NCBI GenBank assembly: GCA_964016885.1
Contig: OZ024746.1
Span: forward strand, 13,206,001 to 13,270,000
Source: Eledone cirrhosa
Lineage: Eukaryota
Reading direction: 5' to 3'
DNA length: 64,000 nt
Positions 27,324-63,143 of the stretch are shown piece after piece. The position numbers were made by a program, and so were the translations under genes. The stretch's first letter is position 1; each line of letters begins with the position of its first letter. Below the pieces are notes generated by a model. The model saw only the letters and a list, made by a program, of their open reading frames with translations. It did no database searches and was not told the origin of the DNA.

Positions 27324-27338
27324 CGTCTACAGTCATTC
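27324..27338 (-). CDS. 15-nt microexon (G)MTVD(G), containing an in-frame ATG
   Basis: catgcag|GAATGACTGTAGACG|gtaagt. Phase 1-1 and in frame with the 20684-20792 exon. Confidence 0.7.
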
Positions 27339-30300
27339 CTGCATGGTAAGTAGAGAATAAATACTATGTCAATGTTAGCTCAACATGCGCACACACATTT
27401 CTACACACACATACATACACACAGAGTTTGGTTCAATTCAAGAAAGTAAATGGTACAAAGAATATTTTAAAATATCTTCTGAAAGTCTTCACAAATGGTA
27501 AATTCTTAATTACCGACCATTTATTCCAACAGGTTTTCTTTGCATTCTTAGATTTTAGACTTTTAAAATGCCAAGAAGCAACAGCATTAAAAAATAAAAC
27601 TACATAGACAAAACAATGTTTTTCAATATACAACCCAACAAAGAAGTCTCTTCCTGGTCACTCAACTGGCTAGGGTCCTGTATCTAGGGAAAAGATGTGA
27701 TGCCTTTGATCATAGGTCTGCTCAATCGGGGCTGACCTGAGGCTTAATTATAACAATGCTGTTCAATACAAAGAGATAACAGATCTAGTACTTCTACTAT
27801 AAAGACTTCTTACAAAGTTATTTAATTATATTAAAGAAAGAAATTGTGAAGTTTTACCAATTAATCTTTCACAATTAAAACAAGTCAATATGTTGAGTAA
27901 TTTGATTAGAAAAAATAAGAAAAAAATGTTTTCATCCAACAATATTAATGGAAAAAAAAGTTGAGGGCCATCACAATGTAATCACTATAGTAAAAAATAA
28001 AATAAAATAAAATTTAATATTAGTTCAATAAATTTAATAAAGTAATTTTGTAGCCTGATATCCATAGTAAGAATCTGTAATTAAATTGAAAACAAATTCA
28101 ATTCAAGTAATTAACAAATTAATTCACAGTCTAAAAAATAACAATTAGCTTATTTCCACTGTTTAAAAAAAAAACAATTAATAAATTCTAATACTAAAAA
28201 CGTAAATTTGTTTTAATATTCCTGAAAAACTATAAATTCCAAAATAATGTTGACTTTGGAAATTTATTTATCAAAATATTAAACCTTGTGTTTTGGAAAG
28301 TTGATATTTCACAAATCCAATACTGAAATACAAGACAGAAAGCAAGTTCAACCAAAGTTTGCAATTAAATATATAACTTTACTTTTGTAGAATGTATTAT
28401 AATAATTTAGGGCACAAATTACAGAGGGCAATTTCCCTTCTAAATAACTGGTACTTACTTTATGAATCCAGGATGAAAGAAAGTTCACCTCTGCAATATT
28501 TAAATTCAAGAGAGAAAGATAAGACTAAATGCTACATACTATTTTGATTAGCTCTCTACTATTTCTGCTACTATACTCTTTAAAATGTCTAAAATTGGTA
28601 TAATGTTTTAGAATTCTAACAAAAGAAAAATATGAAGAAAGTTCATATTTTTTCAACCCTTTCATTTTCATATTTCTAACAAAAGACACTGGCTAAGATT
28701 TATAAATAATCTTTTGAATAATCAAGAATTTGGAGGGATTTTGTAATATTAACAAAGGTTCTTACATAAAATTATGACAGAGAGCTTTTAGATAAATATA
28801 ACAGCTTAAGATAGTTTTGTACTGTAGAACCAGGAGTTTTGAACGGTTTAGTATCAAAAGGTTTAAGGTATGTGAAACAGTTATAACTAGGAACCCAACT
28901 TGATTTTCTCAGAATTTGCAACTACACTATGGTGTTCACCTCAACAATAATGATAATAATTACTACTACTATTATTATAACAAGGTGGATGCAATAAATA
29001 TATTCTAATGAGGACATTAAATTCAGTAAAGAAAAAGAAGTCTTTATTAGCCTAATACTACTTTTTCAACTCTAATTAATTAATGACTTAACAACATCTA
29101 AGATAATCTAGCTTGTAATTAAGCATTTTAATTAGATTGTTCTGGAAAAAGTCAGAGTTTGTTACTACTCACTGCAACATAAATTCCATACTGCAATGGC
29201 ATTTTATTCAACACACTACCAATTCTGCCATTTCACCACTGATGTGTATACAATATTGCAATTGATTCAAAAGATAAACATATTAAATATTTTGTGACAG
29301 TTCAGTGAGAGATGTTATGGGGAGTTACTACCTGTAATATTTACCTGAGTGGTCCGGGCACTTTTCTCTTCATTCCTATTCATACAAAAACCTTTGCTGT
29401 TTCCAAACATTTCTTCCTTACAAGAACACCTATAAGGTTTGTATATCTTTGAGAATGGTGAATGGACAATTATAAGTAAGGAAACATATCCTTTATTCTC
29501 TTTAAGGTACATTTTCAAAGTGAACTAAACCTTCAGAAAGTAATTTACTTTATAAAGTACAAAGCTACTGTTTTAATATACTCCATTTTATATCAAATGC
29601 ATAATTTTAAGTTAAAGCAGTCTCCTCTCAAACAAGAATGTGTCTTGGCTCTTTTTAAGATGAAATATATAAGAGGCCTCTTTTCTCTGGTTAAAATCCT
29701 TGAGATAGTTTTCCTACTAATATCTTAATACATACTAAAGGTTCCTAACAACATCATTTAGATAGGATACCAGTTCATTGGTGATTGGTATCTCTTCAAT
29801 TATTTTTTTAAATATTAGAAAAATATTAGACATGAGAAGACTTTATCCAAGAACTTTCCATTTTGATTACTGCAGACATCAGTTTAAATGTCTCATTGTT
29901 ATAAATTCCAGGCAGATGTATATTAGTTAAGAATCTGAAATATTAAATGAAGAAAAACATAGATCCTACATACAGTTTTATTTCTTATCAAGTAACCAAA
30001 TTAATCCTTCTAGCTCATCTTTTCATAGTTTATGGCTGGTGTTCTGTCAGCTATAATTTAAAATATATCTCTTTGTCAGATTTATGAGATTTGTTGAGAC
30101 TACAGCTGCTAAAGTTACACTGATGGAAGATTCTGGTACTGGATAATAACATTGAAACAAGGTTTTCACTGACACTTGTAAATTATGTTAAGTCATAATT
30201 ATCACAGAATTCAAAATGATTTGAGTAGATAAAGTGTCACTTTTACAGTTCTAGGATTACAATTTTGAATCTCACTATTTCAAAATGCAAGACAATTCTA

Positions 30301-33300
30301 CTTACCTTGGTTTATCTAGCTTCAGAATATGTAATAGTATCTTATCCAGAACATTTAAGAATATATACCAATGTCTTACAACAACAATTTTCTCTCATAA
30401 AATTTACAGCAAAAAATTAAAGTTAAGTACCAACTTTGTAGATTATGAAAGAATTTAATTTAACTAAAATGTCCAATGTACTGTCTATGTGTTATACTAA
30501 ACAGTAGTATCACTCAAAATATGATTCTGAATTATGTCTGATTTCATAACCCAACATTGATAATTTCATGGTCACAAATATGGCTGTTATATAATTAGAA
30601 TGTAAACAATTTGTATATATCTAATTTTCTCAGCCCCAAAATATCAATCCAATGCTGTTCATACACATTCATGTGAGAAGATTCAATCCTTTGATGGCAC
30701 TGAATACCATTAAATTACTTATAGTTTCCAACTAATCAGAAGGTTTATTGGATTATATTTACCCTCTTCTTACTCTTCTACTGCCAAGAAGATTGAGAAA
30801 AGTTTCATAATATATTAAGACTACCACACAACAACTATCGATAGAACTGCCGAGCTATATATTCTTTAATTATGGAATAAAGGTCATGAATAGTTGCAGC
30901 CTACTTTTCCTATTAGTAAACCAAATTACAAGCATAGTTAATTAAAGATGTTACTGCTGAGGCACATAATAGTTTTTATATATTAGAAAAAAAAAAGATT
31001 ACCATATTTACTCATGTATAAGTTGCATTGTTTTTTTTTTCCTATAAAATATGGTGCAAAAACTAGTATGCAACTTAACTACAAGACTTACAAAACCTCA
31101 ATTCAAATCAGGTATTGAGCCAAAAATGGTGTATCTAAATTGGAGGTATATGCGAGTGTATATGCTACATTTGTAGAGATTATCAAGTTTTAGTTTTAGA
31201 TTCATAAATCCAGATAATTAATCTGATATGAAGAATTAGCTTGACCATTCACTGACTTTAATAGAACAGGTTTTGTTGCTGGCATCAGCTGAAGTATAAA
31301 GATGAGTAGAACAGTAAAATATACTTTTTTTTATGTTTCAATGTTGGGCATTGCCAAAAAGAATTTTAAAAAAAAAGGGTGAATTCCCAAAGCTGATTCA
31401 AATTTCAATTTACAGTTTAGTGAAAAATTATCAGCCAAATATTCATCAAATGTATCACATTTTTAGACACAAAATGTTTATAAAAATCAGTAAAATAGTG
31501 ATGATACACACTATTTTCTAATAAAAAGATGTATACTTTCCTTTCTGAAAGGTATCAATTTTCATGTTTAAAACACCAAGAGCCTAGTTTCTAAGTGAAG
31601 ATTAAGTTGATGGTATAAAGCCACGAAATAAATTGAAAAATTATGGAATCAGAAAATGAATGTCTTTGCTCAGGGCTGCTTAACTTATAATTCTAGACAT
31701 TCCTAATATGTTCTTATACCCCCTTCCCCAAGCTACTGAAGTCATCATCATCATTACCAGTTCTAGTTAGATGCTAGTAACACTTCAAACAATGCTATGA
31801 CTTTATTTTTTTACATATGGCTATCCAGTAAAATATTTGTTTCTTCATCAGTGGATTCTTCACAGGAAACTTATCAAAAGCAATCACAGTAAATACCACT
31901 ACAAATTATAATTTAGGTTATTCAATACTGAATAAGAATTTAGGTTATTCAATACTGAATAAGAACCTAAACAAAAACACCAATCATTAACAATAAAGCT
32001 AATTATCATCATGCAGTAAAAGTTAGAGAAATAAGATTGGTAAAGCAGAAAACCAATTTCTTTGTGTTGTTATTTCAATGAAATTTAAAAAAAGTACTTT
32101 AAAACTGAGTGGAACAGCATCTTTGCTGTTTTCTACAATGAAAAACAGTGCAACAACAACAACAACAACAAAGTGTTGGTCAGATAATACAAGCAACCAC
32201 TAACCAGTGGTAATAGAAAAGTGGATTATTTCTTAAGGAACACATGATATACATTTAACACCAATTACAAAATGTGACTAAAATAACCCACAGGAGCAAA
32301 CTTTGTACAACAAAAATGTTAGTAGGTATAACAATTCCCATAGCAACATTTTGTTATTATCGACAACAAATCAAAAATCATTTGAAAATGTGAGAGTCCC
32401 AAACGCAGAAAATAACTGTAATAACAGTCAATCACTATAGATAATAGATGAAAAAATTGGGTAAATTACCCTTAGAGACACGGGTCACTTTATCCATATA
32501 AAGAACTAAAGACTAGACTTTTACTGAAGACAAGTTATGATGAAAGTTAAGTAGCTGCTCCAGTACCAGACTTACCATTGTACTTAGGTGTGCTTAATCA
32601 CAGGGCCCTGTTGGCCCATGTGGGCATCTTCCTTCCCCCACAAATGTTTTATGATGAATTTTTCAAATGTAAGGGGCTTCATAATTTAACTAGCACAGGG
32701 CCTCATTTGTCCTAAATCTGAGCTATTCAAATATAAATTTGTGATAATTAAAGACTTATATCATCAAAACAGATCATTGTTTATCAACCTGAGAAATACT
32801 GAACTGATAAATAAAATTGCATAGGATTGAGGTAACTCCAATACTAGAATGTAAAACTGTTAATAATTATTTCAGAGTAGTAGACCAGTGCTATCAATAA
32901 TGAGGGCAATAGAGTTGAATATATTTCCTTTTTGGAGCTGAGGATTGGTATGACATATATATCAGGATTACCAGATATATGAACAATCATACAAACTGGA
33001 AAATTTGCATTCTGATAAATTAATAGTTTGTATAAGAGAAACCCTATAGTTTAGGTTGAATACTGATACTTAGAAGTGATTAAAGATCATCATCATCATC
33101 ATCACCACTTAATGTCTATTTTCTGACTGTCACATGCTGAAGCAAGACTGGTCAGCTGACTAGGTCCTGCTTGTATACTTTGTTTTGGCTTGGTTTCTAT
33201 GGCTGGATACCTTTCCTAATGCCAACCACTTTACAGCATGTACTGGGAGCATAAAAATGATATCTTAATAATTTATTTCTAGGATATAATTACATAAATG

Positions 33301-33610
33301 TTCAGTATATATGTACAAACGACATAGGGGATTAAATACACGAGTAGCTTTAAAGAAATAATGATTTACAGGGACAAAGGTAGGTTAGGTAGGACCTAGA
33401 AACTTGTGATTGGAAAGCAAACTTATTGTAGCAACACGACTGAGGTATGAAATGCATTGAGAGAGAGAGAGAGAATATAAACACACGTGGTATATTATTG
33501 TGGTTGATTCACAACATAAATTCTATGGAATTTAGTAAGCAACACATATTCATATTTTTCACAGTTTTGTTCCATGAGCTAAGCAGTAGAGCAACTTTAA
33601 TAACACTATA

Positions 33611-33691
33611 TACAGGCTGCAGCAAAAATACCTCCCACATTTTAACAGTTGATCAGGTAACATATGGGAGGTTCTTCTACCGCACCCTGTA
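33611..33691. mobile_element. About 80-bp TA-flanked mini-MITE
   Basis: TACAGGCTGCAG..ACCTCCCA / TGGGAGGT..CCGCACCCTGTA imperfect inverted repeat. Confidence 0.6.
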
Positions 33692-33957
33692 TTATAAAGC
33701 AGTGTGTACCATACGTTCTGATTTCAATTAATATATTAATGAAATGTAATTTTTTTAATTTTTCAAAATTTTAATTGATTAAAATATTTACATGCTCAAT
33801 TAAACTTACTGTAAACTATTTGAAATTTTCTCAAGATAGATAAGCCTCAAATCTCTTCCAAACAAAAATCAGTCACAAAATTAATCGTCAGTTTAAAAAC
33901 AATAACCAAAACAATTTTAATAGAACACCATGCCTGAAGCATTAACTAAATACCTAC

Positions 33958-33987
33958 CAACAATAATTGGCGCCGAAAATCTGTCTT
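33958..33987 (-). CDS. 30-nt microexon (E)DRFSAPIIV
   Basis: ttttttcttactag|...|gtaggta, phase 1-1, open frame. Confidence 0.7.
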
Positions 33988-34697
33988 CTAGTAAGAAAAA
34001 AAAGATATCTATATATATATGCATAAAGGTGTCAGCTATTTTATATAAAGTATGAAATTACATTACTTAAATACATCTTTATAATTAAAACTTAAATGAA
34101 ATGTTCTTAATACTTATAATACTCATACACATCATTTTCTATTGCATGTTACAGTTCTGATATGGATTGTTTAGGAATTCTAGTTACGTAACTCCCGAGA
34201 GAGTCGTAGGGCACCACATTGACATATGGTGTTTCTAGGGTATTCTTTAAACCTAGCAGAGCCCATCTCCTCTCTAGGTCTGAATACAGCAGATTTCTTC
34301 CAAAGAAGGATAGAGAGAGTGAGAGAATGGAAGTGATAAATAAATATAGAGGAAGAATCGACCTCAGTACTAGACTGGTACTTTTTTTATTGACCTTGAA
34401 TGGATGAAAAGCATACAAAAATGCAACTAATCAGGAACTTTCAACACATGTCTACTCATCCTAGTTTCAAACTGATTCTAAAATAAGAACCAAATCACTA
34501 GCATACATTGCAGATACCAAAACTAGATCTAATTTATAATAGTCTGGAGTCTTAGGATGAAGACAGGCTCAAGTGAATAATTATAGTAATGTAAATACTT
34601 TACTCAACTTTTGACATTTGAACAAATAAAACTAAATTGTGTTATTTGTACATATTTTCAAACTGTCAACTATCCTTTTAAAAACACATTAATATAA

Positions 34698-34876
34698 TTG
34701 TTTCTACTTTAGGCACAAGGCCAGCAATTACCCAGTGCATTACTGGTACTTTATTTTATCGACCCCGTAAGGATGAAAGGCAAAGTCAACCTCGGCGGGA
34801 TTTGAACTCAGATCGTAAAGGGACGTAACTATGCTGGAAAGCATGGCGTCCGACCCTCTACCGATACTGCCAATCC
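34698..34876 (-). mobile_element. tRNA-derived SINE, young copy
   Basis: Near-identical to 25299-25440 and 50128-50298. The minus strand has a B-box-like GAGTTCAAATCCC. Confidence 0.85.
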
Positions 34877-36132
34877 AGTTTCTAATTTCAGCACAAGGCC
34901 AGCAATTTTTGTGAGAAGAGATCAGTCAATTAAATCAACCTCAGTACTTGACTAATACTTTATTTTATCAACACTGGAGGAAAGGCTAAGTTGATCTCAG
35001 AGAGATCTGAAATCAGAACATAAAGAGCCTGAACAAATACCACAAAGTATTTTATCCAATGCTCTAACAATTCTACCAGTTCAATATAATGGCAACAGTC
35101 TTATATTATTAAATAACATTCTATGTAAATATTTTCAAATGTTTTCACAGCAAAATTAAAAATAATAGTGATTGCAATATATTTATGTAAGAGATCAATA
35201 TATTACTGAAGATAGATCCTCTGTCAATTTTGAAGATGAAAGTTCAGCTCATCAAATTAATAGTTAATTGGCTGAATATTCCACAGACATGTGTAGCTTA
35301 GAAGCCAAATTAGTGTAACACAATATGTGCGAGGACTGGACTTCAGAATTATAGGTACAATCCATCCAATGGGCATCTACACAGTTTCTGTCTACCTAAT
35401 TTTACTCACAAGGCTTAGGTTGACCAGAGGATATGATAAAAATACCAGGCAGTTGGATCAAACCCTGGACCACATGATTGCGAAAGTGAATTCTTAACCC
35501 CACAGCCATGCCTGCCCCATATATTACTGGTATTTAGTTCATCAACCACAGCCAGACTTAATGTTAGAAAAGTGATTTACTAAATTAGATGTATTTAAAA
35601 ATATAACTCTTAAATATATATATATAGTAATTAATCATCTTGAGGAGATTTACTTCAAAATAACCAACAACAAAATAATAAACTAAACTAATTGTGTAGA
35701 CTTTAATAATTCTTTATAATCAAAGATGATTATTATTGATTCAATGTTTTGGCACCAAAATTACATTATCTTTAAATTACATTATATTCAAAATATTATA
35801 ATAAATATTTTATCAAAACCAATTGAAGAAAATAACAAAAATTATTAAAATAAATAAATGTGTTTCTTAATTATTCTCACTTGGAACAATTTATAATAGT
35901 TTTATATGAAACAGAATCAATGTTTAATTGAACAACATTGGAATCTTTGAAATACATGCAATATTTTCAGGCTGTTACATCTATGTTGAAATATTTATGT
36001 TTACAGTTATTGTTTGAGTAAGTTAAAATGAGATCTCTTATGAACTACAATTATAGGTTTTTAGGAAGCAAGGTTTCAATAAAAGCCCTTAACTCCTGAT
36101 AAAGTTGTATGGGTGCCATCCTGACATACAAC

Positions 36133-36445
36133 ATCATCATCATTTCATTTTACGTCCGCTTTTCCCTGCTTGCAAGGGTAGGACGGGAACTGATTCTGGC
36201 TTGATTTCTACAGCTGGATGCTCTTCCTAACACCAACCTCATTTACAGTGAGTGCTGGGTGCTTTTTTGCCATGGCACCTCCACGACCACTCTACAGTGG
36301 AATGATAGGGACCCCAGTCCCTATCATCTCATTTCTACAGCTGAGGAAACTGGAGCAATGTGAAATAAAGTGTCTTGCTCAAGGAAACAACACATCACCC
36401 GGTCTGAGAATTGAAATCACAACCTTTCGATTACAAGGCCAACAT
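36133..36445 (-). mobile_element. SINE (tRNA-like head, GAT tail)
   Basis: Reverse-complement match to 60091-60465. Confidence 0.8.
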
Positions 36446-36782
36446 GTATTGGGTATATTAAACCTGGTGGAGCCCATCCTTCTCCAGGTCAGAACACAGT
36501 CAATCTCTTCCAATACTTAACTGGTACTTTAGGTATGAACCCCAAAAGGATGAAAGGTAAAGTAAACCTCTGTAGGATTTTAATTCAAAGTGCAGTGAGT
36601 AGAAACAAATACTGAGGCATTTTTAATCTGCCACCCTAAAGACTCCATTTGCCACCATTGTAGCAAAGTTTAAAGAGATATTTAAGACATATTTTCATAT
36701 GAGTTAACTATGAAATGGTGGCAATCACTATGAGTATGATAATGAAATGATGAGAACTATGAGATAGCAGCTAGTTACCTAC

Positions 36783-36815
36783 CATCGATATCAGCATCAC
36801 TGATTACTTCTTCTG
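36783..36815 (-). CDS. 33-nt microexon, type B, (A)EEVISDADID
   Basis: tttctgttccag|CAG...|gtaggta. Paralog of the 39891, 42093, 43953 and 46200 exons. NAGNAG acceptor. Confidence 0.8.
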
Positions 36816-38620
36816 CTGGAACAGAAACATGACAGATTTCAGCAAGAATACAAAACAAACTACATTCCTTTTGTTTTTACTCTATCAATTACCACCAAAG
36901 ATGGATACTTTAAACACAACAAGTCTAATAATTTCTTCAATAAAAACTCTAGATACCTAAAAGAAAGTTTAAATAATTCTTTCTAACATTGGCACAAGGC
37001 CAGCAATTTCAGGAAAGGGAAAGTCAATTATATCAACCCCAGTACTTAACTGGTACTTTATTTTATCAACCCCAGAAGGATGAAAGGCAAAGTTCCTCTT
37101 GGTGGGATTTGAACTCAGAACGTAAAAAGGTGTAACTAAATACAACAAAGTTCAATGTTCTACTAATACCAAAAGATTAAATAATGAACGAAAGTATGGT
37201 ATATTTCTTATCTGGATATAATAAAATTATCAATTTAGTTACCCAAAGTTCATATTTGAAAGAGCAAACAAACACTAAAAAGATTAGGGCCTGCAGATGT
37301 TTTCAAAAGATTTCTTGAGGCTGAGAAAACTTGAGTAAAGAAATACATGGAAGAGTTAGAGAAAAAGAAGCAAGAAAGCCAAAAAGTTTCTTTTCCCCTA
37401 TTGTTGATTGATTTTCTGTAATAGGCATGTTGCACCAAAAATTAAGCCCCTATTTTAAGGAACATATGTTTATTGTTTTAGTAAGTAAAATGAAGACCTC
37501 TCGTTAGCTGAATGTTAATTTTAGCTAGTTGTATTTACAGGACTACTTGATCTGTTACTGTTATTGACCACTCTCTCAAAGTGCAATAAAATACATTGAA
37601 CCGACCTCTATTACATAGACAGAATTATAAAATAAGACTTCAACACCCTCTACTCCTACATATTTGAGGACAATACGTACAGCTTTTAGAAATCATATTT
37701 TGTATAGAACTCACAGGCTGTAAATTCAATGAAGACTTTGAAAGTCATCAAACCTGTTTGTATATTGAAAGTCAACTTGGACAGACATAGAATTCCCTAT
37801 TTCTTCTATATAAATTAGTTAAGAGTATAAAACTGAAACCTTGAGAAATATATGCAAAAGACTGATTGAGAAATAGGTCAGTGGAAAAATACATCTGTAC
37901 ATAAAGCAATCTGTTAAAATCTAAGTGTTGATAATGTTCTTAAAAATTTTGTTTCTGAATTTGTTTAGCAAGATTCTTTATCTGAAATCGTGTGTTGAAA
38001 CCGATATTGTTATACTTAGGGAGGGTCATGTTGCCAATAAGAAACACACGCACCAGTTGCTTTCACTTCAGTTTATTATATATTTATAAATTTACAAATT
38101 TATAAATTTCTGGTTGGTTGGTTGGTTCCACAACCAGATAGTTGTTTATATATAGTCATAGTCCTTTCGTCACACACTCTGTGACCTCTTCAGTGACTGG
38201 GGATTCCTTTCTTTGTTTCTGTGCCTCTCCTTTGTTCTGTCCTACGCCATTTTGTTTCTGTGTGTGTGTTGTGTGCTCAGTCTGCGCATGCGCCACATCC
38301 GGGTGTCTGTGTGTGTGTGTGTTCTTAAAAATATTCTGAATAAATGAGCAATTTGTTTATATACTGTTCCTATATTTATACAATCAGTTAATATACAAAT
38401 TAACTGAAATTATTATTATCATTTTATGTTTGCCTTCCCATGCTGACATGAGATGGCTCGTGACAGAAACCCACCCCTCTCAATACATTCTTACAGAGTG
38501 TACAGGGTGCATTTTCTCATAATACCAGCACTAGCTAAATTTTCATGTCCGTGAGATGACTGAAGAGTCCTCTCTACTCTTAACAGAGCTAATTAAGTTA
38601 AGTGAGAAAATAAGTCTATA

Positions 38621-38905
38621 TCATCATCATCATCATCATCACCGTTTTACGTCCGTTCTTCCATGCTAGCATGGGTTAGAGGGTTGTCCTGTTGTGGGTA
38701 GTGTCTGGTCGGCTGACCATGCGTTGCTCATACAGGAACTGATTTTGGCTTGATTTCTACAGCTGGATGCCCTTCCTAACACCAACTTCATTTACAGTGA
38801 GTGCTGGGTGCTTTTTCGTGGCGCCTACACGTCCACTTTACAGTGTGGGCTGGGTGCTTTTTTGCCGTGGCACCTCCACGGCCACCTTGCGGTGGGGGGC
38901 GTGGG
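38621..38905 (-). mobile_element. SINE with (CAT)n tail as read on the plus strand
   Basis: Matches 16960-17138 in reverse orientation. Confidence 0.8.
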
Positions 38906-39890: not shown

Positions 39891-39923
39891 CATCGAAATC
39901 AATATCACTGATTACTTCTTCAA
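39891..39923 (-). CDS. 33-nt microexon, type B, (V)EEVISDIDFD
   Basis: tttttgttccag|...|gtaggta, phase 1-1. Confidence 0.8.
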
Positions 39924-40567: not shown

Positions 40568-40594
40568 CCACTCCAACTGGGGGTGGTAAGTCTT
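40568..40594 (-). CDS. 27-nt microexon, type A, (E)DLPPPVGV
   Basis: taatag|...|gtaggta, phase 1-1, UGCAUG at +22. Confidence 0.78.
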
Positions 40595-42092: not shown

Positions 42093-42125
42093 CATCAATA
42101 TCAATATCACTGATCATTTCCTCAA
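42093..42125 (-). CDS. 33-nt microexon, type B, (V)EEMISDIDID
   Basis: tttctgttccag|...|gtaggta, phase 1-1. Confidence 0.8.
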
Positions 42126-43332: not shown

Positions 43333-43359
43333 CAAAGTCAATTGGAGGTGGTAGATCTT
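43333..43359 (-). CDS. 27-nt microexon, type A, (E)DLPPPIDF
   Basis: gattag|...|gtaggta, phase 1-1, UGCAUG at +22. Confidence 0.78.
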
Positions 43360-43952: not shown

Positions 43953-43985
43953 CATCGATATCAATATCACTGATTGCTTCTTCAA
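43953..43985 (-). CDS. 33-nt microexon, type B, (V)EEAISDIDID
   Basis: ttccgttccag|...|gtaggta, phase 1-1. Confidence 0.8.
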
Positions 43986-44461: not shown

Positions 44462-44492
<31 letters not shown>

Positions 44493-44698: not shown

Positions 44699-44725
44699 CC
44701 ACTCCAACAGGGGGTGGTAAGTCTT
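44699..44725 (-). CDS. 27-nt microexon, type A, (E)DLPPPVGV
   Basis: taatag|...|gtaggta. Differs from the 40568 copy by one synonymous change (CCA/CCT). Confidence 0.78.
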
Positions 44726-46199: not shown

Positions 46200-46232
46200 C
46201 ATCAATATCAGCACCATTGACCACTTCTTCAA
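46200..46232 (-). CDS. 33-nt microexon, type B, (V)EEVVNGADID
   Basis: tttctgttccag|...|gtatgt, phase 1-1. Confidence 0.78.
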
Positions 46233-49436: not shown

Positions 49437-49466
49437 CCAAGAAACTGGGAGGTGGTAAATCATCAT
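49437..49466 (-). CDS. 30-nt microexon, type A, (D)DDLPPPSFL
   Basis: cttataaag|...|gtaggta, phase 1-1, UGCAUG at +22. Confidence 0.72.
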
Positions 49467-50717: not shown

Positions 50718-50747
50718 CCTGAGAATAAAAAGTTTGTATTTCTTCCT
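50718..50747 (-). CDS. 30-nt microexon (E)EEIQTFYSQ
   Basis: ttttttgttcag|...|gtaggta, phase 1-1. Confidence 0.72.
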
Positions 50748-51164: not shown

Positions 51165-52032
51165 TAAGGTGTGTTACAAAAGTGACAGGACTTAGTGTGC
51201 TATGTGAACTATGATGGGGAAGGGATTAGCAGGTTGCATGACCATGTGATGTAATATACAAGGAGTATATAACTGTGATCTCAGCTCTCTGCAAGCCACT
51301 GTATGCTTTTTCATGTGCTTTTTTTTTAAAGCTGTTGAGTAATGGGCACAAAACAATGAACGAGCCTGAAGTTTCTGGTCTAGAACTGGGGAAAACTCCA
51401 TCAGAAGCACTCAAAATACTACATCAAGTGTACACAGATGAGATGATGTCATGCTCACAGGTTTTCAAATGACACAAAAGGTTCAAAGAGGGATGCGAGG
51501 ACATGGAAGATGACCCCAGAACCAGGAGACCTTCAATGAGTAGGACTGAGGCCAATGTTGAGCGCATGAGGCAAGTGGTGTGTAGCAATCATCCGCTGAC
51601 TGATGGTAAGTGAGCTGAGCATGAACCACAACAGCATTTGGAAGATTATAACCGAAGATTTGGGCATGCAGAAGATGGTGCCAAGTTGCTGAATGATGAT
51701 CAGAAGGAGTGCCGCATGCAGGTGTGTCAGGATATCTTCGAACATCTTGAAACCAAACCAGACTTGCTGGGAAGAGTCATCACCAGTGATGAGTCATGGG
51801 AACCCATTTTCTGGACATGGAAGTCATCAAGAGGTTGTGACAATGGCACTGCAGAGAATCCCAGGAGAATACTTCCAGTGGAGTATGGAGGTGTGGTGGA
51901 GAAGGATGGGAGGTGTGTTAGACTCGAGGGGGGGGGGGGGGGTTATTTCAAAGGGGGGAAACTAATTTATAGTTTGGATTTGAAATATTTCTTTGGCAAT
52001 CTCCATCCTGTTTCTTTTCTGACACAGCCCAT
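51165..52032 (+). mobile_element. Internally deleted mariner element
   Basis: GKTPSEALKILHQVY..EMMS.SQVFK*HKRFKEG.EDMEDDPR and RVITSDESW remnants, with degenerate TIRs. Confidence 0.8.
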
Positions 52033-53204
52033 ATATAGTTAAATGTCAAAATAGTTCCTACAAACATTGGGCAATATAAACATACACATGTACACAGGTC
52101 TAAATGTTCTGTTAGTTATTTAGATGGCAAATAGTAAAATATGGAATTGAAAGGGTTATGATAAAGAGGTGGCAAACCAGTAATTAAAGGAAATAAATTC
52201 TTTGGACATCAGTTATTGAAAAGACATAAAATATAATTTAATGAAATTGCCAGACTGATCAATTAACAAATATTAATGGATTAATAGCTTTCTCATAAAA
52301 ACATAAGTGAAAAGTGAACTAGAAAGGAATTACTAAGTTCAAAGAAATCTCAACATGGAATTGAAAACAATAAAACAAATTAAACTAAATTTAGATTAAC
52401 TCTTAACATCCTGTACCACATGAAACTGCATTATCAAGACATTCTTGAAAAGTACAAAAATTACTTTCCTGTAGTGAGTAAATACAGCAATATTCAACTA
52501 GCAAAAAGGTTCTATGTTAGGAAATATAAGAAGTTCAAATTAACATATTCTTACAATTACATCACTAATAGGAAATAATTGGGATGTAATTTTTAACATC
52601 CAGTTCTGCATGAAACCACATTAGCAAGACATTCTTGACTGCATTCAAGATTAAAGTCTTTAATCATCTAATACTGCAAATTTTCACAACAATCTGTCCA
52701 CTGGTAAAAATACTATAAACATTTTAATCAGCAAATCCATTTTTAGATGTTTTTTGCTAATTCATTTCAGGATGTCAAGAGTTCAAAAGATATGCAGATA
52801 ATTCTATATTTTGGTAAATACCATCTTTACTATTCTGAAGAAACTAACAATAAAATCCAATGAAAATACTTCCTATTTCCATTGGGATAATAGATACTAA
52901 CATTAACTTACTTTGATATATTCCAGGGATGTAAAGGGATGTAACTAACTACCACAAGGTGTTTTGTCAGATATTTTACAATCTCTCAATTAGATATTTT
53001 TATATTTTCTTATAGGACAAAAGATATGAAAAATAAGTTTGTTAGGTGTTAAATGCAAAAATTTCTCAAAAAACAAAAAACTGTTAAGTTATGAAATCAA
53101 AAAAGTAGTTATGCTAATAAATTATTTTAAATGTTTCATCTAACTTCCATTATCTAATTAATTCAAACGCATGCAGTTTCTCACCAACAAAATATCTACA
53201 TTGT

Positions 53205-54200
53205 ATACACTCTACATATATATATCTGAGCTTATATGCCACTCATTATATACACTGTACATGTATATCTGAGCTATATGCCACCCATTGTATATACTCT
53301 ACATATATATATCAGAGCTATATACCACACAATGTATATACACTACATATATATCAGAGTTACATACCACACAATGTATATACGCTACATATATATCAGA
53401 GCTATATACCACACAATGTATATACGCTACATATATATCAGAGTTACATACCACACAATGTATATACGCTACATATATATCAGAGTTACATACCACACAA
53501 TGTATATACGCTACATATATATCAGAGTTACATACCACACAATGTATATACACTACATATATATCAGAGTTACATACCACACAATGTATATACACTACAT
53601 ATATATCTGAGCTATATACCACCCATTATATACACTACATATATATCAGAGCTACATACCACACAATGTATATACGCTACATATATATCAGAGTTACATA
53701 CCACACAATGTATATACACTACATATATATCGGAGCAATATGCCACCCATTATATACACTACATATATATCAGAGTTACACACCACACAATGTATATACA
53801 CTACATATATATCGGAGCAATATGCCACCCATTATATACACTACATATATATCAGAGCTATATAACACACAATGTATATACGCTACATATATATCTGAGC
53901 TATATACCACCCATTATATACGCTACATATATATCAGAGCTATATAACACACAATGTATATACGCTACATATATATCTGAGCTATATACCACCCATTATA
54001 TACACTACATATATATCAGAGCTATATAACACACAATGTATATACGCTACATATATATCTGAGCTATATACCACCCATTATATACACTACATATATATCA
54101 GAGCTATATAACACACAATGTATATACGCTACATATATATATCTGAGCTATATACCACCCATTATATACACTACATATATATCTGAGCTATATGCCACAC
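53205..54200. repeat. About 40-42-bp minisatellite
   Basis: Unit ATATATATCAGAGTTACATACCACACAATGTATATACGCTAC and variants. Confidence 0.95.
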
Positions 54201-54834
54201 ATTCTTATTTAATTTGTAGTTTTCTTCTTCAATATATAACCAACTTTGTTAAACTGTAGTATATTATAAAGACTAACACTTCCAAAATAATCTTTCAAAA
54301 TGTATATCATCTGATATTGGTATTACTCAGTGAGTAAAAATAAACATATGTAGGTGTTTTGTTGGTGCCATTACAATTACTCATTGTCTACTTGATATCT
54401 TGAATTAATCTATGCAAGTTTTAACAGATGCTACTTTCTAAGACAATTTTGATGTAAAAGTGAATTTTAAACAAGAGATCAAATTATTAGAGTTTGGAGC
54501 CAAAATAAATGAGATAAAGTTCTCAGGCATGAAATTTAGTAAAATACAAAACAGTGTCTGTTTTGTAACGTTGCCCGACATAGTTAAGAATGACCATACA
54601 GTTAAAGTGTGAATCTAATAAATGGAACATCTTAATATTTAAGTCTTATTGCTGACATGAGTTGTCTAAGTGTAAATAGGTGTGTAGGTACAGAGTATAA
54701 TATTGAGTAAATGAGTTTCATTAGTTTGTAGTACTAAGTTGATTTTTTTTCTTACTGATATAGCTTGTGGTAGATTAACATCTTATCTGGAATAAGTTAT
54801 TTAAATTCAAGAAAATATGGGTAAAATGTAACAC

Positions 54835-56424
54835 AATACATCTTTCAGTTTAAACCAGTGGGTAAATTATAGCACAACACATCTTTCAGTTTAAACCAGT
54901 GGGTAAATTATAGCATAACACATCTTTCAGTTTAAACCAGTGGGTAAATTATAGCATAACACATCTTTCAGTTTTAAAAAAGTGGGTAAATTATAGCATA
55001 ACACATCTTTCAGTTTAAACCAGTGGGTAAATTATAGCATAACACATCTTTCAGTTTAAACCAGTGGGTAAATTATAGCATAACACATCTTTCAGTTTAA
55101 ACCAGTGGGTAAATTATAGCATAACACATCTTTCAGTTTAAACCAGTGAGTAAATTATAGCACAACACATCTTTCAGTTTAAACCAGTGGGTAAATTATA
55201 GCATAACACATCTTTCAGTTTAAACCAGTGAGTAAATTATAGCACAACACATCTTTCAGTTTAAACCAGTGGGTAAATTATAGCATAACACATCTTTCAG
55301 TTTAAACCAGTGGGTAAATTATAGCACAACAGATCTTTCAGTTTAAACCAGTGAGTAAATTATAGCACAACACATCTTTCAGTTTAAACCAGTGGGTAAA
55401 TTATAGCATAACACATCTTTCAGTTTAAACCAGTGGGTAAATTATAGCATAACATATCTTTCAGTTTAAACCAGTGGGTAAATTATAGCATAATACATCT
55501 TTCAGTTTAAACCAGTGGGTAAATTATAGCACAACACATCTTTCAGTTTAAACCAGTGGGTAAATTATAGCATAACACATCTTTCAGTTTAAACCAGTGA
55601 GTAAATTATAGCACAACACATCTTTCAGTTTAAACCAGTGGGTAAATTATAGCATAACAGATCTTTCAGTTTAAACCAGTGGGTAAATTATAGCATAACA
55701 CATCTTTCAGTTTAAACCAGTGGGTAAATTATAGCATAACACATTTTTCAGTTTAAACCAGTGGGTAAATTATAGCATAACACATCTTTCAGTTTAAACC
55801 AGTGGGTAAATTATAGCACAACACATCTTTCAGTTTAAACCAGTGGGTAAATTATAGCACAACACATCTTTCAGTTTAAACGAGTGAGTAAATTATAGCA
55901 TAACACATCTTTCAGTTTAAACCAGTGAGTAAATTATAGCACAACACATCTTTCAGTTTAAACCAGTGAGTAAATTATAGCATAAACATCTTTCAGTTTA
56001 AACCAGTGGGTAAATTATAGCATAACACATCTTTCAGTTTAAACCAGTGGGTAAATTATAGCACAACACATCTTTCAGTGTAAACCAGTGAGTAAATTAT
56101 AGCACAACACATCTTTCAGTTTAAACCAGTGAGTAAATTATAGCACAACACATCTTTCAGTTTAAACCAGTGAGTAAATTATAGCATAACACATCTTTCA
56201 GTTTAAACCAGTGAGTAAATTATAGCATAACACATCTTTCAGTTTAAACCAGTGGGTAAATTATAGCACAACACATCTTTCAGTTTAAACCAGTGGGTAA
56301 ATTATAGCATAACACATTTTTCAGTTTAAACCAGTGAGTAAATTATAGCACAACACATCTTTCAGTTTAAACCAATGGGTAAATTATAGCACAACACATC
56401 TTTCAGTTTAAACCAGTGGGTAAA
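54835..56424. repeat. 41-bp minisatellite, about 38 units
   Basis: Unit CATCTTTCAGTTTAAACCAGTGGGTAAATTATAGCATAACA. Confidence 0.97.
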
Positions 56425-56496
56425 CAGGGGTGGATATACCAGTGAAAATAAACCAACTTCATGCAATAAACTCTTTATGATACACAGTATACGCAC

Positions 56497-56529
56497 CAAC
56501 AACATCAGGAAGTGGACGTTCTTCTTCGT
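56497..56529 (-). CDS. 33-nt microexon (D)EEERPLPDVV
   Basis: aaatag|...|gtgcgt, phase 1-1. Paralog of the 56836 exon. Confidence 0.7.
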
Positions 56530-56835
56530 CTATTTGTTACAATTAAAGAAAAGAAAAATCAAAATGCTATATTTAGTTGGTTGGCTTTTTTGGCTAATTA
56601 AAAATTCAGAGCTATTTATTTCACTTTTACTATTTAATATACTTTTACTGATTTCATTATTGAAATTATTTCTTAATCAAAGTAAACAAATAAAATATTA
56701 CTTGTTGAATTATTAAATTATAAAGTATGGTGATTGGATTAAAAATCAATAAATATTGAGGAAAATCTATAGAAAAAGAAACTTATATTTTAAATAATTC
56801 AAATTGAAAAAGCTCTGGTATCGTAATATACGTAC

Positions 56836-56865
56836 CAATAATATCAGGGAGTGGACACTCCACTT
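56836..56865 (-). CDS. 30-nt microexon (E)VECPLPDII
   Basis: ttttttatttgtgtag|...|gtacgt, phase 1-1. Confidence 0.72.
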
Positions 56866-57524
56866 CTACACAAATAAAAAAAAACAAAAGATGTTTTAGA
56901 AAATTTAGAGGATATTTTTCATGTGTGTATATGTATGTGTATACATGTGCAAGCTCACACACACACACAGACATAAATGTGTGGAATATTACACAGTTAC
57001 CAATGATCTCATAAAAAAATTATTATTTATTTCACAAGATCAAGGCACATTCCTGTTAGCTGATACAATACCAAACTGATTGATTCTATATTTTATAATC
57101 AAAATTAAAAAGAATAATTTAAACTAATAATGATTTCTACTATAGCCACAAGGACATCAATTTTGGGGGAGGGGAAAGTCGATGAAATCGACCCCCAGTG
57201 CATTACTGGTTCTTCATTTTATCAACACTGTAATGTTGAAAGGCAAAGCTAACTTCAGCGGGATTTCAACTCGGACCGTAAAGGTCCATAACTCTATGCT
57301 GCAAAGCATGGTGTCCAATGCTCTATCGATACTGCCCTCTCAAACTAATAATAAACTGACATGCTTTTTAGATTTACAAAGAGTATCCCCGCCATTTCTC
57401 TAATAACCAGTGTAAGACAATTGTGCTAATATAATGTGACTATATTAAGGCACATTTTCTTAGAAAATATAAAGTATCTTTCATCTACACACACAGTATC
57501 TTTCATCTACACACACACACTTAC

Positions 57525-57557
57525 CAGTCTCTTTCAGAACTATGCCATCAAATGCTT
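57525..57557 (-). CDS. 33-nt microexon (E)AFDGIVLKET
   Basis: ttaatgtag|...|gtaagt, phase 1-1, open frame. Confidence 0.62.
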
Positions 57558-58178
57558 CTACATTAAATTACCTTCAATTATCTAGAAAGCCTCAAACATA
57601 CAACCTATTTGGTGCAGAACATTAAAACACTAAATGGTATTTAACAATAAACAATAACTATGTCAAAGTATTCATTCATCTAAATGCCTCATTTAGATGA
57701 ATGAAAAATGAATGATTGCAATTTTCAGATGGCCTTTAAACAAAAGCTGTTTTCATCAAGATAAATGGCTACATTATAAGTGGTTACCGAGAGCTGTGAA
57801 TTTACAGTCAATGTTGGTATATAGAACATTAAACAGTTAAGGAGGGATTCTTTTGTTTTAGTAAATAACTATATTCTTTAATTTTAGCCATTAGATCCAA
57901 CCTCAGTCAGGTATATATTGCTTGTGACTAGTCTATGTTATCTGAGTTTATTTAAAAATTGTACTGTGTTAATAATATTGCCTCCATCATCAATCATTTA
58001 ATTTTATAAAGATTCTGTAGAGTATAGCAATGTTGTCCACTAGTATTTTTCTATTCAGTTTTGTTCTATGTAGCCATGATTTTCATATTTATGAAGATCC
58101 CCTCTGACTTTATAGAAGAGAAAATCTTTTACAAAACAACAAAGATAAAAATGAAGTTAACTGATTTTAAATACCTAC

Positions 58179-58214
58179 CAGTTGTGGTTCGTTTAACTTC
58201 TTCAATTTTCTCTT
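58179..58214 (-). CDS. 36-nt microexon, type C, (E)EKIEEVKRTTT
   Basis: tgcttctcttcatag|...|gtaggta, phase 1-1. Confidence 0.78.
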
Positions 58215-59132
58215 CTATGAAGAGAAGCAAAATTATTATGAAACAGGTTGGATAAAATACAATTTTTCTTTTTCATTTTGTAAAAATTATAAAACAGCCA
58301 ATTAAGGAGGAAACCATATTTTTTTTCTGAACAAACCCATTAAATGTAGAAAGCTTCAAAGTATTTAAATATTATTGTTGTGATAGAAACACTTATATAA
58401 ATATATTTTTTAAATTAAGAAAAATGTAATATCTTTACTAGAGGTATTTCATTTCTTTATGAAAGAACAAAGATTCCAAACAAACTATTACAACGTACTT
58501 ATAGTTACCATTCTAACGTTTAATACTATGGGATTCTAATTTTAGAAAGTAGAATCTATGGAATTTCTGATACATTCATATTTTAATGTGGAATTTATTG
58601 CAGAAAAAAGAAAAAAAAGCCAGTACCTAATACAAGAAAGTTATCAATTAACAACGTTAGTTAACAAAGAACCAAAAAGAAAGCTTAACAGATCTTGCAA
58701 ATATATTTTGTATTGAAAACACAATTGGGTTGTAATTTTAAACTATTTATAAATTTTTTTCATATTTTTGCAAAAGTTTCATGTAGTTTGTTTGGAACAG
58801 TAAAGTTCCTAAGTCCATTATAAATGTTTCAAAACATTCAGAGTCTCAGAATAAAGTGATGTTGATATGTGTTGCTGCCTCTTTATAATAAAACTAAACT
58901 ACACCCATCACTCGCAATCTAATATGACTTATGATTTCGCTACGGGTTTTAGGTACCTGAGCAGTCGCAAGCAGACACAGACACCCTCTCAACCCTCACT
59001 CACATCATCAAAGAGAACATCCAGGATCTGAAAGAGGGCTATTTATGAAGATCCCTTCTCACTTTATAGAAGAGAAAATCTTTTATAAAACAACAAAGAT
59101 GAAAACGAGGTTAACTGATTTTAAATACCTAC

Positions 59133-59168
59133 CAGTCGTGGTTCGTTTAACTGCTTCAATTTTCTCTT
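59133..59168 (-). CDS. 36-nt microexon, type C, (E)EKIEAVKRTTT
   Basis: tgcttctcttgatag|...|gtaggta. Confidence 0.78.
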
Positions 59169-60090
59169 CTATCAAGAGAAGCAAATATCAATGAAGTTGA
59201 ATAAAATTATCATGAAATAGGTTGGATAAAATACAATTTTTCTTTTTCATTTTGTAAAAATTATAAAACAGCCAATTAAGGAGGAAACCATACTTTTTTT
59301 CTTAACAAACTCATTAAATGTAGAAAGCTTTAAAGCATTTAAATATTATTGTTGTGATAGAAAGACTTATATAAATATATTTTCTAAATTAAGAAAAATG
59401 TAATATATTTACTAGAGATATTTCATTTCTTTATGAAAGAACAAAGATTCCAAACAAACTATTGCGACATAGACAAAATCTAACAGATATTTCACACGTA
59501 GAATATTTATAGTTACCATTCTAACATTTATTACTATGGGATTCTAATTTTAGAAAGTAGAATCTATGGAAAAAAACTACACACATCACTCGCAATCTAA
59601 TATGACTTGGTAATATACATTATGATTTCACTATGGCTTTTAGGTACCTGAACAGTCACAAGCAGACACAGACACCCTCTCAACTCTCACTCACATCATC
59701 AAGGAGAATATCCAGGATGTCTAAGAGAGCTGTACCAGTGTTGGACTCCTACTTTCTTTATCAACACTGAAGGAATAAAAATAAAATGGACTTTGGTGAG
59801 ATTTGAACTCAGAACACAGAGACATTGAACAAATATCCAATGCTCAAATGACTGCCAAATTGACAGTCTTAACTGTGCTACTAGATATGTAAGCATCCAC
59901 ATAGATTGAACAATGAATTTCAATGACTGTGTTGTTAATATTTGCATCATTTACAGCAAAATAATAAGTATTCAGAGATTCTTACCTCAGTTTCAATCAC
60001 TGGGATTTGAACTCAGAATACAGAGACCCAGAACAAATGTCAAACACAACTTCCACACTTTATAGTAGTCAGAGCAAATGTATTTGATAT

Positions 60091-60465
60091 AATGGAGGCA
60101 CATGGCTTAGTGATTAGAGCATAGGCCTTGCCATCGAAAGGTTGTGAGTTCAATTCTCAGACCGGTTGATGTGTTGTTTCCTTGAGCAAGACACTTTATT
60201 TCACATTGCTCCAGTTTACTCAGCTGTAGAAATGAGATGATAGGGACTGGAGTCCCTAACATTCCACTGCAAAAAAGCACCCAGCCCACACTGTACAGAG
60301 GACTTGTAGGCGCCACGGAAAAAAAAAACACCCACCACTCACTGTAAATGAGGTTGGTGTTAGGAAGGGAATCCAGCTGTAGACATCAAAGCCAGAATCA
60401 GTTCCCGTCCCACCCTTGCAAGCAGGGAAAAGCGGACGTAAAATGAAATGATATATGATGATGAT
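60091..60465 (+). mobile_element. SINE inserted in one duplication unit only
   Basis: The paralogous empty site reads ttgatatagacattgctg near 62785-62802. Confidence 0.85.
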
Positions 60466-60784
60466 AGACATTGCTGCCAAAATTTGAATTTTAGCCATTA
60501 GATCCAACATCAGTCAGGTATCTATTGCATGTGAGTAGTGTATGTTATCTCTGTGTTTATTTTAAAATTTTACTATGTTAAGAATATTGCCTCCATCATC
60601 AATCATTTAATTTTATAAAGATTCTGTAGAGTATAGCTGTGTTGTCCACTAGGAATTTTCTATTCAGTTTTGTTCTATACATGATTTTCATATTTATAAA
60701 GATCCCTTCTGAATTTATAGAAGAGAAAATCTTTTCATAAAAAAACAAAAATGAAAGCTAATTGAACTTATTTTGGATACCTAC

Positions 60785-60820
60785 CCGTAGTGGCTTGTAT
60801 AATTTCTTCAATTTTCTCTT
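60785..60820 (-). CDS. 36-nt microexon, type C, (E)EKIEEIIQATT
   Basis: tgcttctcttgatag|...|gtaggta. Confidence 0.78.
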
Positions 60821-61783
60821 CTATCAAGAGAAGCAAAAATCAATGAAGTTGAATAAAATAATCATGAAACAGGTTGGATAAAATACAATTTTCCTTTTTC
60901 ATTTTGTAAAAATTATAAAAAAGGCCAATTAAGGAGGAAACCATAACATTTTCTTAACAAATCCATTAAATGTAGAAAGCTTTAAAGAATTTAAATATTA
61001 TTGCTGTGATAGAAACACTTATATAAATATATTTTTTAAATTAAGAAAAATGTAATATTTTTTACTAGAGGTACTTCATTTTTTTATGAAAGAACAAAGA
61101 TTCCAAACAAACTATTGCGACATACACAAAATCTAACAGATATTTCAGACGTAGAATACTTATAGTTACCATTCTAACGTTTAATACTATGTGATTCTAA
61201 TTTTAGAAAGTAGAATCTATGGAATTTCTGACACATTCATATTTTAATGTGGAATTTATTTCAGAAAAAAGAAAAAAGCCAGTTCCTAATACAAGACTGT
61301 TATAAATTAACAACGTTAATTAACAAAGAACCAAAAAGAAAGATTGACAGATCTTGCAAATATATTTTGTATTGAAAACACAATTGGGTTGTAATTTTAA
61401 CCTATATTCTTTTCATATTTTTGCAAGAGTTTCTTGTAGTTTGTTTAGAACAGTAAAGTTCCTAAATCCATCATAAATGTTTCGAGACATTCAGAGTCTC
61501 AGAATAAAGTGATATTGATATGTGTTGCTGCCTCTTTATGATAAAACTAAACCCATCACTCGCTATTTAATATGATTTGGTAATATGCATTATGAATTCG
61601 CTACGGGTTTTAGGTACCTGAGCAGTCGCAAACACCCTCTCAACCCTCACTCACTTTATCAAGGAGAAGATTCAGGATGTGAAAGAGGGCTATTTATGAA
61701 GATCCCTTCTGACTTTATAGAAGAGAACATTTTTTTTAAAACAACAGAAATGAAAACTAGTTGAACTGATTTTAAATACCTAC

Positions 61784-61819
61784 CAGTAGTGGTTCGTTTA
61801 ACTGCTTCAATTTTCTCTT
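61784..61819 (-). CDS. 36-nt microexon, type C, (E)EKIEAVKRTTT
   Basis: tgcttctcttgatag|...|gtaggta. Confidence 0.78.
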
Positions 61820-63107
61820 CTATCAAGAGAAGCAAAAATCAATGAAGTTGAATAAAATTATTATGAAACAGGTTGGATAAAATACAATTTTTCTTTTTCA
61901 TTTTGTAAAAATTATTAAACAACCAATTAAGGAGGAAACCATAATTTTTTCTTAACAAACCCATTAAATGTAGAAAGCTTTAAAGAATTTAAATATTATT
62001 TTTGTGATAGAAACACTTATATAAATATATTTTCTAAATTGAGAAAAACGTAATATTTTTACTAGAGATATTTCATTTCTTTATGAAAGAACAAAGATTC
62101 CAAACAAACTATTACAATGTACACAAACCCTAACAGACATTTCAGATGTAGAATACTTATAGTTACCATTCTAACATTTAATACTATGAGATTCTAATTT
62201 TAGAAAGTAGAATCTATGGAATTTCTGACACACGTGATGTTGACATGTGTTGCTGCCTTTTTTATAATAAAACTAAATTACACCCATCACTCGCAATCTA
62301 ATATGACTTGGTAATAAACATCATGATTTCACTATGGCTTTTAGGTACCTGAACAGTCATAAGCAGACACAGACACCCTCTCAACTCTCACTCACATCAT
62401 CAAGGAGAACATCCAGGATATCAAAGAGAGCTATACCAGTGTTGGACTCCTACTTTCTTTATCAACACTGAAAGGATGAAAAATAAAATGGACTTTGGTG
62501 AGATTTGAACTCAGAACACAGAGACATTGAACAAAGATCCAATGCTCAAATGACTGCCAAATTGACAGTCTTAACTGTGCTACTAGATATGTAAGCATCC
62601 ACATAGATTGAACAATGAATTTCAATGACTGTGTTGTTAATATTTGCAACATTTACAGCAAAATATTAAGTATTCAGAGATTCTTACCTCAGTTTCAATC
62701 ACTGGGATTTGAACTCAGAATACAGAGACCCAGAACAAATATCAAACTGTCTTTCACACTTTATATTAGTCAGAGCAAATGTAATTGATATAGACATTGC
62801 TGTCAAAATTTCAATTTTGGCCATTAGATCCAACATCAGTCAGGTATATATTGTTTGTGACTAGTCTATCTTATCTGTGAGTTTATTTTAAAATTGTACT
62901 GTGTTAAGAATATTGCCTCCATCATCAACCATTTAATTTTATAAGAGTATAGCAATGTTGTCCACTAGTATTTTCTATTCAGTTTTGTTCTATGTATCCA
63001 TACATGATTTTCATATTTATGAAGATCCCTTCTGACTTTATAGAAGAGAAAATCTTTTTATAAAAAACCAACAATGAAAACTAGTTTCACTGATTTTGAA
63101 TACCTAC

Positions 63108-63143
63108 CAGTAGTGGCTTGTTTAACTTCTTCAATTTTCTCTT
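63108..63143 (-). CDS. 36-nt microexon, type C, (E)EKIEEVKQATT
   Basis: tgcttctcttcgtag|...|gtaggta. Confidence 0.78.

Follow-up and report, generated by a model that had tools for sequence, protein, structure and literature searches.

An array of 32 frame-neutral microexons encodes an internal acidic linker in a nucleoside-phosphorylase-fold protein of Eledone cirrhosa

How does a conserved protein with an enzyme fold come to hold a long run of exons of 15–36 nt, and what might the resulting insert do? The question is raised by a locus of the octopod Eledone cirrhosa, for which we analyzed a stretch of 64,000 nucleotides (hereafter the window; assembly GCA_964016885.1, contig OZ024746.1, positions 13,206,001 to 13,270,000). 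An earlier note on this DNA had described at least 20 symmetric microexons building a modular acidic N-terminus on a nucleoside-phosphorylase-like protein. By an ab initio splice-site scan without the prior peptide, we recovered exactly 20 microexons on the minus strand, from 63143 down to 27324, with lengths of 15 nt (1), 27 nt (3), 30 nt (4), 33 nt (7) and 36 nt (5) and a sum of 627 nt. All 20 are bounded by AG and GT, have G as final base (phase 1-1), are multiples of three and stop-free, and stand in frame with the core exon 20792-20684. Of 21 peptides joined in the earlier note, 20 are microexons, while the 21st is the start of this 109-nt core exon. The figure of at least 20 holds for the window; taking in 150 kb upstream in the 3.0-Gb genome (coordinates on contig OZ024746.1 are given as C6), we found 12 further microexons, nine of type A and three single, at C6:13,270,130-13,291,935. 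The full array thus comprises 32 microexons (1,050 nt, 350 aa), all in one phase-1 intron. Under a fixed rule, whose donor pattern was picked after the exons had been seen, 30 sites occur on the coding strand of a 69,331-nt interval and none on the opposite strand, against 2 per 53,290 nt in the other introns of the gene and a mean of 0.73 (maximum 3) in 30 dinucleotide shuffles. The array is far beyond chance.

Five ordinary coding exons, one of them at C6:13,296,126-13,296,245, lie above the array and reach the start codon at C6:13,343,522, which locates the first exon that had been sought beyond the window, and the gene consists of ten ordinary coding exons plus the 32 microexons. The core exons below the array, also on the minus strand, are 20684..20792 (109 nt, phase 1-2, start of the winged helix, PF22979), 18661..18779 (remainder of the winged-helix domain), 17256..17399 (start of the PNP/MTAN fold, with the E264 equivalent), 12725..12850 (PNP domain) and 664..1408 (last coding exon with the stop codon, PNP domain, with the E512, R532 and D536 equivalents). 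The last exon is 96% identical to Argonauta hians and 91–92% to Octopus; 95% of its words are present in 4 of 24 listed sequencing runs, the small shares in the other 20 being no evidence. The array stands between a conserved N-domain of 160 residues and the winged helix, so that its product is an internal linker and not the N-terminus that had been proposed. Skipping all microexons gives a product of 573 aa with 95.5% identity, without gaps, to the Argonauta protein P0001, and joining all of them gives 923 aa with no internal stop. The product is acidic and of low complexity, as had been expected: aspartate plus glutamate (D+E) make up 30% of the linker, K+R 9% and P+E+V+K 47%.

The use of these exons can be followed in relatives. 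The orthologues in RefSeq are LOC115212809 of Octopus sinensis (at least 48 isoforms, 48 in one cluster and three listed apart) and LOC106873546 of Octopus bimaculoides (at least 11 isoforms on orthologous exons). RNA-guided annotation therefore does not miss the array, contrary to the prediction that gene predictors probably would. In three Octopus species the annotated isoforms link orthologous modules to the core, which puts the microexons in one gene with exon 20684-20792, and models of O. vulgaris and O. bimaculoides include linker forms of 0, 5 and 15 aa. All 18 inspected isoforms of O. sinensis have distinct linkers, with gaps that fall on predicted module edges, and they include one-residue tandem-acceptor variants and a 7-residue extension matching an in-frame acceptor at 34008. 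Since these isoforms carry many conserved modules together, mutually exclusive splicing is ruled out for those modules, with type A left aside. Against the longest O. sinensis linker, 17 of the 20 window modules match at 60–100% identity with their order kept. Assembled contigs that a tree places as sister to octopods, probably from squid or cuttlefish, have linkers of 0, 5, 8, 23, 411 and 452–476 aa and show all four combinations of two 12-aa blocks; these linkers are known from assembled transcripts, in which exon structure is not readable. Combinatorial skipping, as the earlier note foresaw, is thus borne out in relatives, and composition is alike in both coleoid lineages (D+E 28–30%, P+E+V+K 47–50%). 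Homologue searches with the linker region (about 8,000 scored candidates each) returned cephalopod isoforms only, with 8 and 5 matches, and an atlas searched with the linker of the sister clade yielded no usable match. A candidate separate 15-nt cassette lies after exon 1 at C6:13,334,362-376 (-), the best of 7 candidates by likeness to five optional residues of octopod and sister-clade isoforms. While the orthologous exons are already in public annotation, a search on the locus ids, the Pfam id and cephalopod microexon arrays, largely of papers outside subscription, found no paper describing the array.

How the array grew can be read from type A, which has 14 copies in E. cirrhosa versus 1 in O. 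sinensis. The repeated units of 1–3 kb are 85–92% identical and the flanks of the copies 63–96%; growth is by tandem duplication of an exon with flanking intron, and it is still ongoing. All 14 copies keep AG, GT, length and frame, and no decayed type A copy was found. A search of the 3.0-Gb genome with the type A pattern gave 13 matches, all of them inside the array intron on the coding strand. Per pair of type A copies, the mean number of amino-acid-changing differences is 2.7 versus 1.1 silent ones. Types C and D, which alternate, are older than type A.

The linker site itself is an old, permissive slot. In the main family outside cephalopods the length at this site varies from -11 to +37 residues (a comparison that set aside fungal rows that had misaligned and a single nematode model whose N-terminus was foreign), and other molluscs, annelids and arthropods have 0–37 optional residues there. 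Both a short and a longer form occur in oysters (0, 11, 19), scallop (0, 11) and bees (2, 22). In a lophotrochozoan paralogue a folded Methyltransf_FA domain occupies this site, and the insertion point (residues 161–163) is the sole stretch of the 573-aa model with a predicted local distance difference test score (pLDDT) below 50. On the best reading, an ancestral slot for cassette exons was expanded in cephalopods. In the bivalve Mercenaria, protein P0068 has an optional linker of 19 aa with a stretch like the cephalopod 15-nt exon, a hint that this exon may predate cephalopods. A second gene of E. cirrhosa at C28:35,629,787-35,703,487 (+) has winged-helix exons matching the Methyltransf_FA-bearing lophotrochozoan subfamily; a 15-nt cassette scan and tblastn over 100 kb found no array there, only 2 stray candidates, in a scan that may not fully cover the linker slot as the N-terminal exons of this paralogue were not located. 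At C14:10,366,747-10,366,821 stands a lone, degenerate partial copy of the winged-helix exon of 109 nt (84% over 62 nt), with no other exon of the gene seen within 10 kb.

In coding order, the window opens with five type A microexons of 36 nt, at 63108..63143 (copy 10 of 14, copies 1–9 lying upstream of the window), 61784..61819, 60785..60820, 59133..59168 and 58179..58214. The next, 57525..57557 (33 nt), is the least certain member, with a poor pyrimidine tract. It is followed by 56836..56865 (30 nt), which shares 8 of 10 residues with an O. sinensis module skipped in some isoforms, 56497..56529 (33 nt, non-consensus donor, GCATG at +33), 50718..50747 (30 nt; 2 of 18 O. sinensis isoforms skip its orthologue) and the proline-rich 49437..49466 (30 nt, GCATG at +23). 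The type C microexons, each of 33 nt, are 46200..46232, 43953..43985, 42093..42125, 39891..39923 and 36783..36815; type D, of 27 nt with GCATG at +23, is found at 44699..44725 (proline-rich), 43333..43359 and 40568..40594. The last two are 33958..33987 (30 nt, GCATG at +25, with the alternative acceptor 34008 giving a 51-nt form) and 27324..27338 (15 nt, GCATG at +14), the latter being in or out independently in octopod and sister-clade isoforms. Introns of the gene also contain four minisatellites, at 7787-12575 (26 nt, ~177 copies), 5812-6870 (39 nt), 53198-54201 (41-42 nt) and 54818-56424 (41 nt), two of them inside the array, and decayed plus-strand reading frames at 1850-2950, 21450-22450 and 25850-26120 that we presume, from general likeness and without a family scan, to be remnants of Tc1/mariner transposases. 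Upstream of the gene, glycine-rich exons after an RRM-like exon (C6 ~13,399,000-13,401,400 (+) and 13,419,300 (-)) presumably belong to an hnRNP A/B-type gene.

The GCATG motif recurs beyond the window, lying 14–33 nt downstream of the donor in 10 of the 32 exons and 8 of the 13 exon families. With one count per family, it ranks first among the 1,024 5-mers at +7 to +44 (Bonferroni P 1.4e-7; background 32 of 721 pseudo-donors). Flanks compared between families are at background identity, about 50%, yet the positioned GCATG is kept. A downstream (U)GCAUG is reported as the position from which Rbfox promotes inclusion (PMC12064062), and the array may be under control of this kind. UGC upstream of the acceptor, described as a mark of SRRM/eMIC targets (PMC10551640), occurs at 16 of the 32 exons, 14 of them copies of one, and in 3 of the 13 families, which is about background; QKI and MBNL motifs around the array exons are likewise at background.

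The mechanism that we favor, at about an even chance, is one in which Rbfox-type control yields tissue-dependent long forms whose acidic disordered spacer changes tether, partners or location. The octopod gene would belong to a protostome family composed of the N-domain, a winged helix and a PNP-fold nucleosidase, in which small optional exons, one or two in number, would long have been present in the intron between N-domain and winged helix. Tandem duplication of an exon together with flanking intron would then have packed this intron with frame-neutral microexons in coleoid cephalopods. A short form of 573 aa, with everything skipped, would be made, and many exons would be included where Rbfox is present, which by analogy means muscle or neurons. 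The long forms would bear an acidic, proline-rich and presumably disordered loop of up to 350 aa with the folded domains unchanged. Since the folded domains would stay unchanged, the most likely role of this loop is that of a tunable spacer and a surface for interactions, which in such tissues would alter how the N-domain is tethered to the catalytic part, or which partners the protein has, or where it is located.

Several points weigh against this mechanism. Splicing of the array in E. cirrhosa would follow that of its relatives, from which the evidence comes, and isoforms in RefSeq, like contigs from short reads, can combine exons that no single molecule has together. The tissue of inclusion is likewise an extrapolation. 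Octopod and sister-clade linkers are alignable at their ends only, and this, with the excess of changing over silent differences in type A, means that linker sequence is weakly constrained. Among the window modules, two type A copies match O. sinensis weakly (6/12 residues) and 57557 is unmatched (1/11), the latter counting against 57557 alone as the least certain member. GCATG is missing from 22 of the 32 exons and, within 60 nt downstream, from families A (14 copies) and C (5 copies), and common descent of the exons could inflate the enrichment statistic.

A rival reading is nearly neutral growth, in which any hydrophilic in-frame loop is tolerated, selection removes the copies that break frame or splicing, and length has little function. 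The 14 type A copies against one in O. sinensis, kilobase units that are still duplicating, linkers without sequence similarity between octopods and the sister clade, and a site that tolerates even a folded domain would all be expected under such growth. It does not readily account for module order and sequence being kept between E. cirrhosa and O. sinensis, for a positioned GCATG persisting where flanks have fallen to background identity, or for the similar composition reached in both coleoid lineages, and we consider it possible but on balance doubtful.

What the spacer of our favored mechanism would act upon depends on the host protein. In a model of P0001, residues 254–565 have an MTAN fold (Z 23.5, root-mean-square deviation (rmsd) 3.1, 222 residues aligned to 4l0m_A; Foldseek E 3.9e-11), in agreement with the nucleoside-phosphorylase-like core proposed at the outset, and residues 167–231 form a winged helix (Z 11.5, rmsd 2.0, 64 aligned to 9j89_D of ZBP1). 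Pfam finds HTH_69 (PF22979, E 2.2e-8) and PNP_UDP_1 only, the 573-aa model is a compact enzyme fold (predicted template modelling score (pTM) 0.83), and a PDB sequence search with P0001 gave no meaningful match. The N-domain (P0001 residues 1–150) is conserved across protostomes without a Pfam match; its model (pLDDT 82) has best Z scores of 6.7 (ribosomal eS1) and 6.5 (uricase), which is no clear match, and Foldseek found none at E 0.001. Such weak matches do not establish a new fold. A complex prediction of the N-domain with the winged-helix/PNP part scored 0.00 with the alignment unused and is evidence neither way. Residues E264, E512, R532 and D536, conserved in 80, 76, 81 and 81 of 81 homologues, map by profile and structure alignment to MTAN E12, E174, R193 and D197, which we take to have roles in catalysis, and the host protein may be an active enzyme. 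In a conserved loop of the PNP domain (exon 12850-12725, at approximately 12766-12768), E. cirrhosa and the sister clade have Phe versus Ser in Octopus and Argonauta.

The PNP domain is closer to fungal PNPs (E 7e-21) than to solved MTANs (profile E 0.013), and also matches a PADLOC PN-superfamily effector (E 4.7e-7) and the NCBIfam MTAN model (E 2e-7). A tree of a 39-row clade versus 8 outgroup rows, midpoint-rooted and built without CG12065, H14E04.2, Cap17 or housekeeping sequences, groups the cephalopod domain with proteins of bee, beetle, flea and nematode in a single protostome clade (100/100). Rousset et al. (10.1101/2023.01.24.525353) assign CG12065 and H14E04.2, arthropod and nematode proteins of the same build, to the clade of the Cap17 ATP nucleosidase and speculate on Z-nucleic-acid sensing; the domains that they assayed were a fungal and a sponge one, not CG12065 or H14E04.2. 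Judging from sequence and predicted structure, the cephalopod host looks like a member of this family and may be a Cap17-like ATP nucleosidase. This link, the winged-helix domain and the Rbfox motifs go beyond the earlier note. On that footing one could propose, as a speculation that is rather unlikely to hold in full, a parallel coleoid expansion in which an Rbfox-controlled microexon dial (0–350 aa, up to 476 aa in the sister clade) was set on an ATP nucleosidase derived from bacterial defence, with nerve or muscle cells thereby adjusting how firmly the N-domain restrains the ATP-destroying enzyme. If true, splicing would encode the activation threshold of an effector in cell-autonomous immunity or energy control, and the array would have expanded twice in parallel.

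Improbable, in our judgement, is the related idea of an immune rheostat, in which a polyanionic loop sets the threshold of a Cap17-like ATP nucleosidase, for instance by mimicking nucleic acid and so shielding the winged helix, and protects ATP-hungry nerve or muscle, or else diversifies against pathogen inhibitors. The Cap17-clade placement of its insect and nematode counterparts, the kinship with fungal PNPs and the kept catalytic residues fit this idea, as do the top winged-helix matches, which are Z-alpha domains (Z 11.5 and 11.0), though these are tied with ordinary winged helices and regulators (Z 11.0–10.8). The gene is slow-evolving and low-copy, unlike most immune effectors, and its winged helix is net acidic (K+R 9 vs D+E 12). 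Z binding is reported to require NxxxY, with pPxW in the wing (PMC11298590). Helix 203–215 of P0001 is without NxxxY, and pPxW is not present as such, position 227 being aromatic (F38, W17, Y13 of 81) with the prolines mostly absent. The NxxxY columns, which we presume to be 207 and 211 from the leucine spacing of ADAR1, are variable in the 81 homologues.

Very unlikely is a titin-like spring, in which long forms would be anchored at both ends in muscle with an elastic length set by splicing. The short, repetitive, alternatively spliced exons resemble those described for titin PEVK (PMC6469411), and a P+E+V+K content of 47–50% and Rbfox motifs agree with it; the host is a compact enzyme fold in which Pfam shows no Ig, Fn3 or filament-binding domain, and muscle expression and anchorage at both ends would have to be assumed. 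The view that these segments are pseudo-exons, debris of repeats, an artefact of assembly or pieces of a different transcript, for which their inferred splicing in E. cirrhosa and the tandem duplicated type A unit might be cited, is scarcely credible given modules joined to the core in three Octopus species, type A matches confined to the coding strand of the array intron, and copies whose divergence is too great for a duplication made in assembly.

The main known settings of large symmetric microexon arrays are titin-like springs and proteins that parasites secrete; the present one lies in a conserved enzyme-fold protein. It can be followed from a cassette of 0–37 aa elsewhere among protostomes up to linkers hundreds of residues long in each of the two coleoid lineages, with duplication ongoing, which makes it a natural series for the origin of microexon arrays and for exon definition on near-identical exons of 27–36 nt. 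The natural short and long forms could also be used to probe animal winged-helix-PNP proteins proposed as ATP nucleosidases.

Among known systems, LOC115212809 and LOC106873546 are orthologues (last exon 92% identical) with the same linker modules and order and annotated combinatorial isoforms; in O. sinensis, however, the linker has ~19 modules (188 aa) with a single type A, versus 32 exons, 350 aa and 14 type A copies in E. cirrhosa. CG12065 and H14E04.2 share the winged-helix and PNP architecture. In CG12065, cassette exons of 81 and 57 nt are in frame and B52-sensitive (PMC8797185, PMC4274639) and are listed in PMC8797185 as ASE, not in an eMIC group; H14E04.2 has an in-frame cassette that is regulated during development and by several factors jointly (PMC2265522, PMC3025544), and PMC4617965 and PMC11363564 mention genes of this type in lists. 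They differ in having one or two cassettes and no array. The parallels with titin and Schistosoma drawn in the earlier note stand for gene architecture and go no further than analogy. As in titin PEVK, many short repetitive exons give an acidic, proline-rich segment of variable length; P+E+V+K is 47% here versus about 70% in titin PEVK, homology is not expected, and the array belongs to an enzyme-fold protein of 573 aa, whereas titin is a giant filament with Ig/Fn3 domains. Schistosoma micro-exon genes (MEGs) have 10–20 or more short exons, mostly multiples of 3, with introns of 0.3–7 kb and skipping (10.1101/2023.06.21.545858), and the run of short symmetric exons varied by skipping is found here too. 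MEG products are small secreted proteins made mainly of microexons, whereas here the microexons are an insert in a conserved three-domain protein of ten ordinary coding exons and 573 aa, whose N-terminus is hydrophilic on inspection. The array belongs to neither titin PEVK nor the Schistosoma MEGs, though it is like both in gene architecture.

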